Assembly: GCA_031409335.1 (NCBI GenBank)
Contig: JANNWY010000084.1
Span: 1-11,764 of the forward strand
DNA: 11,764 nt
Reading direction: 5' to 3'
Source of the DNA: Chthoniobacteraceae bacterium
Lineage (GTDB): Bacteria > Verrucomicrobiota > Verrucomicrobiia > Chthoniobacterales > Chthoniobacteraceae
Shown here: piece after piece, positions 3,001 to 9,000 of the stretch
Layout of the letters: each line of letters opens with the position of its first letter
Position numbering within the stretch: the first letter of the stretch is position 1
Made by a program: the position numbers

Positions 3001-6000
3001 CAACCCACGGAACTATTGGAAGGAAGAAACTGGCTGGGTTTTGCGGGAATCTACCCGACAAAATTTGTGGCGATTTCCAAAGAACAGCAATTTGCGGAAA
3101 AACTGCACGCCTACACCCTCCCGCGTCTTGAGGGAACCAACAGTCGCGTCAAGGATGTCGTCGATATGACGCTTCTGCTTCGGCTCGGAACAATGGATCG
3201 AGAACGGCTCGGGGAAGCCATCCGCACAACCTTTGCTTTGCGGGATACGCATATGCTTCCAATCGTTTTGCCGAAGCCACCTCCATCATGGAGCACACCC
3301 TATCAGACATTGGCGGCAGAATGCAGCCTCGCTTGGACGCTACAAGAGGCCATTCAGAATCTCGGCATGTTACTCTCAGATGAAATATCGGGGTAGGAGA
3401 GAGAGACAACTGAAAACGGGGCCGAGAGTCCGAGGCTCTGCACAATGTTACGAAACTATATCGGAAATTGCTGACGTGACACGGGCGTATATTTCAGACG
3501 CTGTCTGAAAAATGCGGCGCAGATTCGCCCGACAGCATCGGGCGTTTCTCAGCGCGTAAGCCAGAGCCGTTCGCCGCCTTCATCCACAGTCAAGTTTCCG
3601 CAGCCGTCGTTGCCCCAAAGAACGTCTGCGGCGACGGCATCGCCGATGACTTTTTCCACCACATCGCGCAGCGGACGCGCGCCGAGGCGCGGATGAAAAC
3701 CCCGCCGCACGAGGAACGGCAGGACGTTTGCGGCGGGTTCGATGCAGTGGCCCTTCGCGCTCAGAAATGCCACTTCCTGCGCCAGTAGGAGACGTGCGAT
3801 TTCAAGCTGCACGTCGTAGGTGAGCTTTTTGAAAACGATCTTTTCGTTGATGCGTCCGTAGAGTTCGGGGCGCATCGCGCGCTGCGCGTGGGTGAGGACG
3901 TGGCGTTCCATTGTGGCGAAGCTGGAATACTGAAGTTCGAGCAATTCCGCCGCCGCGATGTTCGAGGTGAAGACGATATAAAATCCGCTCCAGTCGAGCG
4001 TCTCCCCATTCGCCATCGTGATCCGCGCTGCATCGAGGATTTGCAGGAACAGGTCGAGAACGCGCGGATGCGCTTTCTCGATTTCATCGCAGAGCAGCGT
4101 GCCGCGCCCGTGCTTATCGTGCGCCAGCGCGAGCGTACCGCGCTCACCCAGCTTTCCGCCGAGTAGCAGCCCGATGCTCTCTTGCGTCTGATACTCCGAC
4201 ATATCGAAGCGGAACAAGTGATCCAGCCCCATGACGATCTCGGTGAAGGCGATGGTCACTTCTGTTTTTCCGACGCCGGTAGGGCCGAGGAAAAGGAAGC
4301 TGCCGAGCGGACGGCCCGGTTTTCTCAGCCCGAGTTGCCCGCGCTGGAGGACGGACGCAATCCGCGGCAGCGCATGATCCTGTCCGCGAATCTTACTGCG
4401 CAAGTAAGTCTCCAACGCGCGGAGTTTCGCGCGCGTCGCATCATTATCATCGGTCGAATTGGTCATGCAGCGACTTCATCACTCTCCATCTGAAAAGTGG
4501 CTCCACCGGCGGAGCAGCTCTGTTCGTCGCTTCGGCTACAAAGAAGCGCATGAACATTCCACCATTCCTCGTTTCCATGCGCTTCGCTCCAATACTCGCC
4601 CAGGCCGCAGGCGGTCTCGCCGAAGGCGCGAGTAAAGCGATGGGCATTGTCATGCTCATCGGATTTATCTTCGGCACAATCTGCGTTGTCGGCGGCGGCT
4701 TCGCGATTCGTCGCGGCGACACCGACGCCGGCAAACTTTCGATTATCGGTGGACTCATCATCGCCGGAGCGCCGGTGATCGTGAAGGCGCTCTTCACCGC
4801 CTTTGGCCTTGGCGGTTCGACCGTGGACGTAGGCTCTTTCCAATGAAAGACCACGAGCTGCGCTTTTCCGACACGAACAGTGCCAATGACTCCGAAGGCA
4901 AGACGTGGGGCCTCGATGGCAACCTGTTTTGGTTCGTGGTCGCTGGCGTCTTTCTTTTCGTCGTGACGCTGCTCCTCCTTTTCAGCGCGGCCCGGTGCAG
5001 TTTCGGCCAGTCATTCGCGATGGCGATCATCCCGCTGGCGCTGACGCTCATCTACGTCTTCGGCTTCCGGCAGGGGAAGCCACCCGCCTACGACCTAGAC
5101 CTCGTGGATTATTGGACGAACGGCGCGGGCTTCGCGCCAAATCCTCAGCTTCAACCTCAACATCCCTTCCGCGCGAAGAACGATGTGGCCGATTGATTCC
5201 ATCGTCGAGAAGCCGGCCAACGGCTACTTCCTCCGCGACCTCCTGATTTTCAATGGGCTGGATGCGGGCGGCTTCGCCTCGAAGGGTTTCATCTTCGAGC
5301 CGCCGGATTTCAACAACGCGCAGATCGGCGAACTGAATGAGTTCCAGGATCAACTATCCGTCTTGCTCGCTTCATTGAGCGACAATCAGCGGTTGCAGGT
5401 TCAATGGTATTGCGACTCGGACTATCAGCGCGAATTGCTGCGCTACAACGACGAGACAAAACGGGCGACGAACGTCTGGACGCGCCGCGCACGGAACGAA
5501 CGCTTCGCGCGTTACTGGCAGGCGATGACCAATCGGCAACTCCGCCGTCAACGGCTCATTCTTTACGTGTCGCGGAGCATCGAAACCTCGCCGTCCTTTT
5601 CCGCATCGCGCGGGAGTTTGACGAAGCACTACGACCACTTGCTCGACCAGCTTGAGCAGGAATTCGCGCAGGTTCACGAGACCATCACCGGAATTTTCAG
5701 CGGCCAGGGCGCGCGAATCATCCCCATGACCGATGCCGACCACTACCGGCATTTCACCGCGTTCCTGAATCCATCGCTCGCCGAGCGTTTCAACTACGAT
5801 GCCGTAGAGACTTTCGCCCCGTCGCTTTCGATTCAGGAAAATTGCTGGCTCTGCGAAGGCAACGGGCAGTCGGATTTCGGTTTCTGGATGGATGGGCACT
5901 ATCACTCGACCATCGTGCTCACGCGTTGGCCGAAGATGACCTTCCCCGGCATAATCCACCGGCTCACGAACCTGCGGCTGCTCGACTACACCATCACGGT

Positions 6001-9000
6001 CAACGTCGATCCGATTCCGATCCGCAAGGAAATCTCCCGCGAGGAGAAGGCGCACGAACGCATCGCGGGCGACTATGCCAGCGAGAAGAAGCTGTCGCTG
6101 CTCACAGTGATGCAGAAGAAGGAGCGCAAAATCGCCGCGCTCATGCAGGGCCATACGCTGCCCTTCAACGCACTCTTCATCGTGCGCGTGTGGGACAAGA
6201 CCAAAGCCGGACTGTCGGCAAAGGCGACCGCGATTAAGAACGCGATCAACTCGATGAACTCGGCGCAGTATTTCGAGAGCAGCCTGCCGAGCACCACCAA
6301 GAAGCTCTTTTTCCAAACATGGCCCGGCTGGTTGTGGGGCCGATACGAATATCGGAAGCTCTACGCCGAGCATCACTATCTCGCCGACATGCTACCCGTG
6401 AATTCGACATTCACCGGGCATCTCGCGACCGCCGAGGCCATCTACGACGGCGGCGCGTCGAATCTCATCGGCATCAAAACTTTTGCCGGAGCCGAGGGCG
6501 AAAAGTCCCCGCAACACGCCGTGGTGCTTGGCATGAGCGGCACCGGGAAATCGGTGACGATGTGCGACCTGCTTTCGCAAACGGAACTCTATTTCGATTA
6601 CACCGTCATCATCGAGGAAGGTCTTTCATACGGCATCTACACGAAGACCGTCGATCCGAACGCCGAGCCGATCATCCTCCAACCGGACGGTTCGCTGACG
6701 ATCAACTACCTCGACACGTCCGGGCTGCCGTTGACGCCACTGCACCTTTCCACGGCCACGGCGCTCGTCGCCCGCATGGCTGGCGTGAGCGCGGACGAGG
6801 AAAAGCAGATGCTCCGGCAGGCGCAGATTTCCAAATACCTCAATCAGCTCTACGAGGACGCCTACCAGGATTGGACGAACCGCTACCCTGAGAAGGTGGC
6901 CAAAGTCGCGCGTCACGCCTGCGCACTCGCTGCCTATCGACGCGACCGCCTCGCACCGGGCGCAACCTCGCTCGATGCCTTTGCCGATTTCCGCGACTGG
7001 TATCGCGCAAGCCAGGACGAAGCACATGCCTTTCTGACAGGCTTCAACGATGCGGAGGTATTGCGATTTTCCAAAGACCCGAACACGGCGCGTGAAGTTC
7101 GGAATCTGGCTTTTTCCTACTTCACGCTTTCGGAATATCCGACTCACCGGATGCTTCAGGAGTTGATGCAGCTTGAGGCATCGGGCGCGAGTAAAGAGCA
7201 GGTCATGCAGATCGCCACGCTGCTTCTACCTTGGTGCCGGGACGGTAACTATGGGCCGCTGTTCGATGGCGAATCCAATATCTCGCTCACTGGCAAGATC
7301 GCGCATTTCGAGCTGGGTTACATTTCCGAATCCGCGAAGGAGCTAAAATCGGCCGCGGGCTTTCTCATCACCAATTACACGCGGCAGCACATCATCACGA
7401 TGCCTCGCGCATTGCGGAAACGGAACGTCTATGAGGAGGTCGCCCGGTTTCTCGACATCCCCGAGGGCGAGAAGATCGTGAAGGAGAGCTACGCGCAGAT
7501 GCGAAAGTTCAACACTTGGAACATCGCGATTGTGCAGCAATACGCGCGGTTCAAGGAAAGCCGTATCCGCTCGGCGGTGTTTGGGAACAGCCGGCAGTTC
7601 TTTATGATGAAGCAGAACGACCGGGCGGACCTCGATGACATCGCGCAGGACATCGCGCTGCCGGAAATCACGAAGCAGACGATCATGAGCTATCCACTGC
7701 CCGACCAGCAGATCGGGCAGAAGTTCTCGGCGTTCACTTATTACCATGTGGACGCGCTGCGGCCCGTCTGCGGGACCGTCCACAATATCGCCTCGGCGGA
7801 GATGCTGTATTGCAGCAGCACGAGCGGGGAGCACTTCGAGAAGCGCGCACGGCAGCTCAATAAGCACGGCGACATCATCGAAGGGATCGTCACTCACGCC
7901 AACCAAGCTGCGGTCGCAGCAGCCAAAACGCCGACAGTATGAAGATAGGAACCTCGCTACTTCTCATCATCCTTCCCGCCTTGCTGACCGGCTGTGCTGG
8001 CACCACGCGAGTCGTCACCGACACGCTGGCCGCTGGAGTTGGAGGATTCGCCGGCAATAAGCTCGGCAAAGGCGACCCGCTCATCACTGCGGCAGGCGCG
8101 GGCGCGGGCGTCCTTCTCGGCGAAGCACTCAACTTCGCAAACGACAATCACGCGAAGAAAGCCTACGCCGAGGGCTTCAACAAAGGACGGAGCGACGCGG
8201 TGAAGCAGCAGTATTGGGTCATGGTCAATCAGCAGAAGGCCGAGGAGGGGAAAGCCTTCGACGAGAATATCAGCCTCTTTGAAATCCCGGTGCCGGAGCA
8301 GCGCATCGACGGCGTGATTCTAAAACCCACCACCAAAGTCCTGAGAATCGAGGAGTAACCCAATGATGAATCCCTACGAGCCAAACATCGACCGCATCGA
8401 CACCGATGAAGTGTTCCGCCGTCAGCGCGAGGAACAGCTTCGGCAGGAACAAGACCGACTGCGCCAGCAGGAGCAAGAGAGGTTGTGGCGTCAGGACGAA
8501 GAACGCCAGCGGCAGTGCCCGCGACCCTAACTAACTACCCGCCAAACACAGCCATGAACAAACGCCTACTCATTATCGCCATCGCATTCCTACTCACACT
8601 GCCACCAGCGAGGGCGCAGCTCATTGTCGAAGACATTGCCTCCATCGCGCAGGACGCCATCAATCAGGTCGTGGACCTCGCGAAGTATGTCGAGATGGTC
8701 AACAACCAGGTGCAGCAGATCAATACGATGACGCAGGAGCTTCAGCAGACGGTGGCCTACGTCAAAGCCTTCGGCGATCCGGCGCAGCTTCTGGAAATCA
8801 CAGGAGTAAATGAGCTGATGTCGGAACTAGACCTATCCGGCATCGGCCAGACGCTCGGCGAAATCCGGCAGACCGCTTCGGGCATCCAATCGCTAAAGAA
8901 TAACGCAACGGGACTGTATCAAAGTATCACCGATATTTCATTTTCCGGTATCGAGGTGCCGAGAGTGGCCGACTTCTACAAGCCATACTCCGCCTTGGAG

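Follow-up and report, generated by a model that had tools for sequence, protein, structure and literature searches.

The 305-aa AAA+ ATPase encoded in the 11,764-nucleotide window (the whole stretch of DNA analysed, positions 1 to 11,764 of contig JANNWY010000084.1, assembly GCA_031409335.1, from a Chthoniobacteraceae bacterium) is probably, judging from gene content and structure modelling, a non-threading ring that replaces VirB11 and acts as the core third ATPase of type IV secretion systems for conjugation (T4SS) in Verrucomicrobiota. Recruitment of an unrelated motor for the VirB11 job is suggested because VirB11 is missing, the protein is one half of ClpB lacking the pore loop, and docking on VirB4 is predicted. 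Whether these systems would also make up an undescribed conjugative T4SS class across the phylum, with VirB11 replaced by a domesticated loop-less ClpB half docking at the VirB11 site of VirB4, we regard as evenly balanced. The features of the window are listed in Table 1.

Table 1. Features of the window and the basis of their assignment
Feature	Position	Strand	Basis or remark
VirD4-like coupling protein, C-terminal part, at contig start	2..1066	plus	
Stand-alone ClpB-D2-derived AAA+ ATPase, 305 aa (proposed VirB11 analogue)	3549..4466	minus	
ATPase residues 178-189, loop and helix start, predicted VirB4 contact	3900..3935	minus	where ClpA/C have their IGF-type loop for ClpP docking
ATPase residues 103-110, shortened pore loop 1	4137..4160	minus	8 residues vs 13 with GYVG in ClpB
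20-bp palindrome between divergent starts; likely a site for a regulator of transfer genes on the element	4498..4517	none	
Conserved TAnAA box, 7 nt 5' of pilin start	4537..4542	plus	
VirB2/TrbC-like pilin, 98 aa	4550..4846	plus	profile match; helical hairpin model
VirB3-like membrane protein, 117 aa	4843..5196	plus	slot between pilin and VirB4; no curated match
VirB4 ATPase, 919 aa	5183..7942	plus	
VirB4 residues 556-566, predicted contact helix	6848..6880	plus	D559 in 56/57 rows
VirB4 residues 653-665, second predicted contact helix	7139..7177	plus	E or D at 660 in 56/57 rows
Glycine-zipper lipoprotein, conserved in operon	7939..8358	plus	
VirB5/TrbJ-like protein	8557..9363	plus	relatives: TrbJ_Ti 8e-10, VirB5 3e-9
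Small protein in entry-exclusion (TrbK) slot	9360..9575	plus	by position, with a weak match to TrbK_Ti (E 0.05)
VirB6/TrbL-like membrane protein, start uncertain	9572..10729	plus	position and conservation; no library match
VirB8/TrbF-like protein	10726..11403	plus	conserved, before VirB9 and VirB10; no library match
VirB9/TrbG-like protein, cut by contig end	11387..11764	plus	CagX E 0.013

The preliminary description of this DNA had identified the ORF as the second AAA+ module and small domain of ClpB, and AAA_2 and ClpB_D2-small are indeed its only domain matches. ClpB models match it at E 8e-59; it scores 200 bits where the ClpB cut-off is 1232, and the hallmark of Hsp100/ClpB disaggregases, a pair of AAA+ modules plus N- and middle domains, is absent. 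No longer form above 40% identity was found among the best 120 listed of 7995 scored long candidates. The AlphaFold model (pLDDT 96) has the D2 domains of ClpB and ClpA as top structural matches, and the likeness to the ClpB/ClpC/ClpA D2 domains of the HCLR clade (TM 0.83-0.89, Z 29, 33-40% identity) extends to Walker A and B, sensor 1, Arg finger, GARP sensor 2, pre-sensor-1 hairpin and small domain. Unlike these proteins, the ATPase lacks the N-domain, D1, the middle domain and the GYVG pore loop, has a short family motif in place of the ClpP-docking loop, and belongs to a clade of its own tied to conjugation. The Walker motifs are intact, as had been claimed: Walker A is kept in 134 of 135 family rows, and Walker B, sensor 1, Arg finger and sensor 2 (R205 and R264) in all 135. 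A branch with SH-aLRT 95 separates the family from the D2 domains of two-ring Hsp100 proteins (FastTree and LG+G4 trees were used). By sequence, the ATPase descends from the second AAA+ module of ClpB/ClpC. Over 60 close pairs dN/dS was 0.064; pairs were restricted to those at least 80% identical since inclusion of saturated pairs raised the value to 0.37. A truncated ClpB pseudogene is ruled out by the purifying selection, the separate clade and the uniform length. Also ruled out are a ClpP partner, the IGF loop being missing (IGF/L pattern in 9/135 rows, short segment), and a sigma-54 activator, no insert of the GAFTGA type being present.

The ATPase was found to travel and co-diverge with one type of VirB4, as gene content and trees show. 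This VirB4 gave 51 matches in 37 of 401 genomes. For 48 of them the short ATPase lies no more than 50 kb away on that contig, for one it lies on other contigs, and for two none was found; the apparently whole system at G010:C19 is without a detected ATPase. Conversely, all 26 genomes with the ATPase at a strict cut-off carry this VirB4. A plasmid search with the ATPase returned full-length Clp proteins only among the best 40 of 1558 records, and two circular plasmids found instead by a VirB4 search both carry the ATPase. The ATPase and VirB4 trees agree (57 pairs, patristic r 0.94, 33/54 splits shared). Given the near-obligate co-occurrence in the phylum sample, the congruent trees and the purifying selection, the suggestion that the ATPase is dedicated to conjugative elements is upheld. 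Sampling covered Verrucomicrobiota and one Acidobacteria-titled set. In the latter set 27 of 151 genomes (tally centred on G401 and including the unpublished genome G454) matched at E<=1e-92, a cut that divergent members would miss, all with frames of 862-960 aa. A profile scan of genome contigs was dominated by full-length ClpB/C, with 2 of 80 loci belonging to the family and the remainder used as outgroup, and the viral contigs searched contained two-ring Clp only, with no match to the family motif; an RNA search listed no holder.

The accompanying genes resemble the MPF_T/P-type systems (RP4 Trb, Tn4371, IncN) in their pilin-B3-B4-B5-eex-B6-B8-B9-B10 order, in TrbJ/VirB5, TrbI and CagX matches and in the MOBF relaxase, and differ in that every component falls below the curated cut-offs, VirB4 matches the TraC-F, VirB4_CagE and CD1110 models weakly and to a similar degree, and no VirB11 is present in the locus. 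The order fits that of the canonical VirB2-VirB10 set, with VirB2, B4, B5, B9 and B10 assigned by weak matches and VirB3, B6 and B8 by position only. Relatives of the VirB3-like protein match TIGR03750 weakly; those of the VirB9-like protein match CagX at 8e-5, followed by TrbI/VirB10 at 2e-10. The pilin assignment, earlier considered weak (E 0.05), is stronger than that, with 33 of 59 family members matching TrbC/VirB2 at E<=0.05 (best 1.7e-6); its profile gave no meaningful match to PDB sequences.

No VirB11 (TIGR02788) match above cut-off was found in any of the 26 ATPase-bearing genomes. Five further genomes do have such matches, which sit on separate contigs or some 300 kb off and none at any element, and the T2SSE matches among 241 neighbouring proteins belong to type IV pilus clusters. 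The ATPase itself matched neither T2SSE nor the VirB11 model in profile or structure searches; we take its AAA+ fold of the HCLR clade to be unrelated to the PilT/GspE-like secretion ATPase fold of VirB11. With VirB11/TrbB it has in common the gene slots, its place as the third, soluble ATPase in a system of VirB2-B10 type, and predicted binding to one and the same helical insertion of VirB4. According to passages in two reports, virB11 stands after virB10 or ahead of virB2 (PMC3548315), and traG is followed by trbBCDEJLFGI (PMC2789088). All three neighbourhoods of VirB11/TrbB (after virB10, before virB2, beside virD4) were seen for the ATPase, with no other VirB11, so by gene order it occupies the slots of that protein. 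Since many T4SS classes are said to function without VirB11 (PMC4027160), its absence does not by itself demand a substitute.

Docking was predicted with a complex model of the ATPase and the VirB4 C-terminal domain, which scored 0.63 against 0.04 for the best of three controls, these being unrelated proteins and not ClpB-D2 or VirD4. The mark used is reached by 116 of 157 solved pairs and 2 of 215 mismatched pairs, a calibration that holds roughly because self-built paired alignments were used. Contact agreement between runs was 100% and partner pLDDT at least 84. The model, which supports but does not show binding, places ATPase loop 178-189 against a pair of helices in the C-terminal helical insertion of VirB4; E187 and R188 set the family apart from two-ring Clp D2 domains. 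Covariation at these contacts, computed on the alignments that also served the model, was weak (effective depth 25, mean z 0.58, 1.4% of shifted patterns). In TraB, the residues given in part of one study as binding VirB11 are E591, E594, A598 and Y619 (PMC9259494). They belong to this same insertion, located between Walker A on one side and the W..G.YG.LFD motif on the other; residue mapping onto this VirB4 depends on the aligner, and "same insertion" alone holds.

The ATPase is probably a docking and switching enzyme that does the job of VirB11 by different means, without polypeptide threading. An ATP-dependent ring would stack under the central VirB4 hexamer, turning towards it the side that ClpA/C rings use to dock on ClpP. 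Binding and release, driven by nucleotide, would then stabilise or switch VirB4 while pilin is extracted and the pilus assembled, and may also do so at hand-over to VirD4. How VirB11 works with VirB4 is described as unknown (PMC12857230). If the replacement is real, it is a convergent recruitment of an unrelated motor and a natural experiment, in which the features common to both motors are what the VirB11 step needs, namely a nucleotide-switched ring on VirB4 and not substrate threading.

An action on the DNA-transfer side is the alternative that survives best, and we consider it unlikely: the ATPase would be a non-threading remodeller of VirD4 or the relaxosome (release, oligomer switch) and not of VirB4. 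In 6 of 44 loci virD4 immediately precedes it, as is independently the case at three f30 loci, and two intact copies (G159:C25 and G321:C21) follow virD4 in stretches where, as far as read, mating-pair genes are missing. Tree congruence is likewise similar for VirB4 and VirD4 (r 0.90 and 0.91 on 18 elements). The relaxase, on the other hand, is tracked less well than VirB4 (partial r 0.18 vs 0.84, 20 elements), and the complex model supports binding to VirB4. The third copy in the source genome, C228, points the same way: an in-frame stop precedes sensor 2 and the pilin ends after about 59 residues on a contig that has lost VirB3 and VirB4, though VirD4 and relaxase persist. VirB11 also contacts VirD4, so this alternative is partly compatible with replacement of VirB11.

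The earlier proposal of a single-ring unfoldase, in which relaxase or pilin would be threaded through the pore as in ClpX, HslU or Skd3, is improbable. ClpX, HslU, Skd3 and ClpV thread their substrates by an aromatic pore loop, and the ATPase shares the single-ring Hsp100 architecture with the first three; like ClpV/TssH of type VI secretion it is dedicated to a secretion machine, without the two rings and N-domain of ClpV. The ClpB D2 ancestry and complete catalytic motifs would suit threading, yet the GYVG loop needed for it is deleted in 44/44 loci and in every one of the 74 representatives that measure 270-400 aa, whereas 83 of 86 two-ring D2 domains keep it, and the reading fails on this point. 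This deletion had been overlooked in the preliminary description. The remaining loop is 7-9 residues long in 131/135 rows, the equivalents of ClpB E639 and H641, the second D2 pore residues, are lost as well, and no conserved aromatic takes their place (6/135). In favour of threading, f30 members have a tyrosine at the loop start, the retained pre-sensor-1 hairpin could stand in for the loop, to go by one paper (PMC7973254), and relaxase is stated in another to need unfolding by an enzyme not known (PMC5826034). The same loop loss is, in the portion of the torsin literature cited, the case made against threading by torsins, which are also single ClpB-D2-like modules without pore loop (PMC4999309). 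Torsins match the ATPase structurally at Z 21 with 17% identity, and differ from it in that the ATPase is bacterial and cytoplasmic and retains an Arg finger of its own together with a GARP sensor 2; torsins rely for the Arg finger on the activators LAP1/LULL1 and have a non-canonical sensor 2 absent from the family. The replacement of VirB11, if true, would provide a second case, this one from bacteria, of a ClpB derivative that resembles torsins and does not thread; a candidate partner and hosts in culture (Opitutaceae plasmids) are available for it.

A role as regulator or co-activator of transfer genes, exerted at the promoter region that the divergent genes share or on a transcription factor encoded next to it, is more doubtful still, and gene layout bears on it. 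Divergence from pilin, VirB3-like gene and VirB4 was confirmed in the window, with a start-to-start distance of 84 bp and not the 110 bp first given, the conserved pilin start being at 4550. Recounting the metagenome loci gave identical figures (47 of 80 with more than 1.5 kb upstream; pilin in 46, VirB3 in 45, VirB4 in 44). These loci are 62-92% identical, and the near-invariant head-to-head layout holds among such relatives, that is in the subclade of the window, and not in more distant genomes. The three copies in the source genome (C84, C173 and C228; 100, 89 and 75% identity) do lie at a pilin gene, with the C228 pair broken. Among 41 loci outside that genome, nine are directly head-to-head and eight head-to-head with one small gene between; in 16 (16/44 loci) the ATPase comes last in the structural operon after virB9-virB10-lipoprotein, in six it follows virD4, and in two it is co-directional ahead of the pilin, so a fixed operon position is rejected. 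A regulator that shares the promoter, which had been kept as a fallback, fits poorly with this place in the operon, and no DNA-binding domain was found in sequence or structure model. What favours regulation is the palindrome conserved between the ATPase and pilin in the subclade of the window (family consensus TTGT-N12-ACAA, degenerate in the window) and the adjoining regulators, LuxR-type in 12 loci, RHH-like in eight and AraC-type in several. These differ by subclade, so there is no common partner; the palindrome also stands 5' of relaxase and other element genes, so the ATPase, sharing it with transfer genes, would be a regulon member. The TAnAA box may be the -10 of a leaderless transcript.

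Accessory defence or host control, as a Dodola-like anti-phage ATPase or a loop-less subunit poisoning host ClpB/ClpC rings, is the least probable reading: the models of DolB and of PDC-M37B are matched weakly (E 1e-12 to 1e-23), far below those of ClpB, and the ATPase, core conjugation gene and not defence cargo, follows the VirB4 tree while the genes 3' of it vary freely. DolB is, from a part of its description, also a short stand-alone ClpB-like ATPase (PMC11514479); the present protein is about 70 aa shorter, and gene maps and Pfam scans revealed no dolA-like conserved neighbour. In favour of the reading, AbiE toxin-antitoxin genes adjoin the ATPase in the window.

Literature searches, to which most subscription journals were outside the scope, found no paper on the ATPase family. 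In the source records its members are annotated as ClpA or ClpB, and the family may therefore serve as a marker for mobile elements of soil, sediment and gut that lie below current model cut-offs.

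Profile searches with the 305-aa ATPase matched only the second AAA+ module (D2) and small domain of ClpB, and the structure model (pLDDT 96) superposes on D2 of ClpB and ClpA, which bears out the domain assignment of the preliminary description. The three copies described for the source genome were found again, but the one on contig C228 carries an in-frame stop ahead of sensor 2; a truncated pilin lies alongside, and VirB3 and VirB4 were not found on this contig. The ATPase is a conserved family and not a fragment of ClpB: at least 120 clusters stand at >=69% identity, the family takes its own side of the tree, and 60 close pairs give a dN/dS of 0.064 (VirB4, 0.051). 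In the 54-row tree, unrooted and without an AU test, 29 family rows split from 25 D2 domains of longer proteins with an SH-aLRT of 95. Dozens of representatives of 270-400 aa were found, down to about 36% identity; the only proteins longer than the family among the matches listed were ClpB/ClpC at 36-40% identity, which is weak evidence. The carriers that are named belong to the Verrucomicrobiota (Chthoniobacteraceae, Akkermansia, Opitutaceae). A literature search gave no published description of the family.

The ATPase and pilin genes start 84 bp apart, and the pilin start is kept in relatives. Since 33 of 59 pilin members matched TrbC/VirB2 at E<=0.05 (best 1.7e-6), the assignment of the pilin, weak as first made, is upheld and sound. 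When the best 80 of 436 metagenome loci were taken (62-92% identity), 47 had more than 1.5 kb upstream, with pilin in 46, VirB3 in 45 and VirB4 in 44, exactly as counted before. Contrary to the earlier claim, the head-to-head layout is not fixed. A search of 401 genomes of the phylum gave 42 matches in 26 genomes, clear of ClpB; these and two further loci, 44 in all, show the arrangements counted in the table. Conjugation genes adjoin the ATPase in all 44.

Features of the window and of related elements
Feature	Location or count	Remark
ATPase gene	window 3549-4466 (-)
Pilin gene	window, start 4550	followed by VirB3-like, VirB4, lipoprotein, VirB5, small exclusion-slot gene, VirB6-, VirB8-, VirB9-like; VirB3, VirB6, VirB8 named by position, without library match
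VirD4 gene	left end of window
Spacer palindrome	window 4498-4517
Palindrome copies, source genome (G000)	C214:2612; C293:81264; C14:46746; C228:24080, 37329; C294:15184, 17690
Palindrome copies, locus L264	2624, 6951
DUF7673 gene	window 1006-1608; C228:23510-24031; L134:16484-17116	recurs in ATPase elements
AbiEi/AbiEii toxin-antitoxin pair	window 1895-3396	between DUF7673 and ATPase
Circularly permuted ATPase	L285:1049-2101	plasmid CP007054.1
Prokaryotic ubiquitin and E2-family-D genes	L167:5678-7770	downstream of ATPase, one element type
ATPase directly head-to-head with pilin	12/44	three from source genome; one with small ORF between
ATPase head-to-head with pilin, putative RHH-like gene between	8/44
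ATPase last, behind virB9-virB10-lipoprotein	16/44
ATPase directly behind virD4	6/44
ATPase co-directional, ahead of pilin	2/44
Elements without virB6 in fetched stretch	L209, L211, L212, L217, L219, L225, L228, L229, L231, L232, L239, L245, L247, L258, L267, L269, L273

The layout varies, and the partnership of ATPase and VirB4 is constant. The reverse census from VirB4, a stronger test of the link than a census of ATPase loci, gave 51 matches to the ATPase-linked VirB4 type in 37 of the 401 genomes, no more than two candidates being scored in each. For 48 of the 51, a short ATPase lay no more than 50 kb away on the contig of VirB4, a count that takes in far more divergent ATPases seen on reading the VirB4 flanks. 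Of the other three, one (G082) has it on other contigs, and none was found for the remaining two, an apparently whole system (G010:C19) and a 1.6-kb contig (G127). Both circular plasmids with the linked VirB4 carry the ATPase gene. This VirB4 is present in each of the 26 genomes that gave a strict ATPase match, and the 364 genomes lacking it gave no such match, at a cut that misses divergent members and with five candidates scored per genome. The feature is real and goes beyond what was previously reported: the family belongs to the core of a conjugation system of Verrucomicrobiota. ATPase and VirB4 trees correlate over 57 pairs, kin among them not being independent (r 0.94; 33 of 54 splits in common). 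The ATPase might instead act on VirD4 or the relaxosome, as its correlation with VirD4 (0.91) is not separable from that with VirB4 (0.90) over 18 elements; the same comparison favours VirB4 over the relaxase, and we regard this alternative as unlikely.

Compared with T. thermophilus ClpB, a five-residue deletion takes out the GYVG pore loop of the ATPase, and the equivalents of ClpB E639 and H641 are also lost. The loop is missing from every one of the 44 loci and, as judged by eye, from each of the 74 representatives of 270-400 aa; among 86 D2 domains from long proteins, 83 keep it. The segment G103-G110 has 7-9 residues in 131 of 135 aligned members and fewer in four, against 13 in ClpB, and only six members have any aromatic residue there. 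All 135 have Walker B, sensor 1, the Arg finger and sensor 2; Walker A is found in 134. For torsin, loss of the pore loop has been put forward as the reason why peptides are not threaded (PMC4999309). These losses speak against the unfoldase proposed earlier, and polypeptide threading by the ATPase is unlikely; some chance of it is left, since the pre-sensor-1 hairpin, able to carry substrate in other clades (PMC7973254), is retained. That the ATPase is nonetheless a threading unfoldase has, in our estimate, a rather slim chance.

Since VirB11 binds the C-terminal domain of VirB4, as described in a study that tested residues E591, E594, A598 and Y619 of pKM101 TraB (PMC9259494), VirB4 400-910 was folded with the ATPase. 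The four residues were confirmed at these positions in R46 TraB. The complex scored 0.63 and the best of three controls, all unrelated proteins, 0.04; of pairs with a solved structure 116 of 157 come up to the score mark, of mismatched ones 2 of 215. Contacts agreed to 100% between runs, with a partner pLDDT of >=84. To our knowledge, there is no solved Hsp100-VirB4 complex for the predictor to recall. The model supports a putative binding of the ATPase to the VirB4 C-terminal domain. On the ATPase, the predicted contact takes in residues 178-189, which sit where ClpC has its ClpP-docking loop and include E187 and R188, family-specific in an earlier comparison. On VirB4 it takes in two helices, 556-566 and 653-665; D559 is kept in 56 of 57 rows. 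The VirB4 helices, like TraB 591-619, are part of the helical insertion that separates Walker A from the W..G.YG.LFD motif; two aligners disagree on the mapping at residue level. Interface columns are on average no more conserved than the remainder of each domain, and covariation at modelled contacts, from the same alignments as the model's, is raised only mildly, with a mean z of 0.58 (1.4% of shifted patterns).

None of the 26 carrier genomes has a TIGR02788 (VirB11) match above the cut-off, and two weaker ones lie on other contigs. Five further genomes gave eight matches, each either on a different contig or some 300 kb distant; most are in frames of 530-600 aa and one is above the cut-off, and a chromosomal VirB11 helper may exist there. 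Among 241 neighbouring proteins, T2SSE matches occurred only within the type IV pilus clusters of some elements. This absence should not be over-read, because VirB11 is rare outside MPF_T (PMC4027160). Published gene orders place virB11 behind virB10 or ahead of virB2 (PMC3548315) and trbB between traG and trbC (PMC2789088), and these three neighbourhoods are those used by the ATPase. It belongs neither to ClpB nor to the threading unfoldases nor to VirB11. We consider a VirB11-like way of working probable, with the ATPase as a non-threading ring that would dock on VirB4.

The spacer of the window's subclade contains a 20-bp palindrome (consensus TTGT-N12-ACAA), which ends 31-35 nt ahead of the pilin start and is at about the same distance from that of the ATPase. 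Across 62 rows, 7.1 of the 8 arm positions are paired, compared with 3.6 when other windows from these regions are taken, and inner positions show compensatory changes among 31 distinct sites. Further copies precede the relaxase and other element genes in the source genome, and metagenome loci hold 15 extra copies against 3.2 expected. The palindrome is element-specific and stands in front of genes for the pilin, the ATPase, the relaxase and integrase-like, excisionase-like and small HTH-like proteins, in many cases 32-34 nt ahead of the start codon. The shared palindrome argues for co-regulation of the ATPase with the transfer genes; it may be the site of a master activator, with transcripts that would be leaderless. 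Candidates for its binder, picked by eye, are small HTH-like genes close to integrase-like ones. The ATPase itself could be the regulator, but no DNA-binding domain was found in it, and this is very doubtful. A role in defence or host control is the least credible.

The slot of the AbiEi/AbiEii pair is filled by other cargo on contig C173 of the source genome and in relatives, and the palindrome precedes the DUF7673 gene in C228 and L202. In the permuted ATPase, the stretch for profile positions 226-283 lies ahead of that for 9-242, either by real permutation or by rearrangement; no second case was found among the proteins collected. Long Hsp100-like proteins (L014, L048, L089) also have no D2 pore loop, and 1000-aa proteins (P0122, P0123, P0126) have three D2-like stretches; in trees they fall outside the family. 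Both virB5 and virB8 are visible in 25 close elements, with only 9-211 bp between them in 17; virB6 is absent from the fetched stretch in these 17 and may lie elsewhere in the element. A VirB6-less T4SS would be unusual. Two tandem VirB8-like genes occur among L130, L141, L144, L166, L172 and L174-L177, some with 900-1240 aa coiled-coil genes behind VirB4. Plasmid NZ_CP109797.1 (L287, L288) appears to contain a unit of ~51 kb twice over, with numerous frameshifts; this is probably an artefact of assembly. In elements L127, L150, L153-L158, L189, L160, L162 and L287, the T4SS genes adjoin a type IV pilus/T2SS-like cluster with N-methyl pilins, T2SSF, secretin, PilB-like ATPase and adhesin, which recalls the thin pilus of IncI1 plasmids.
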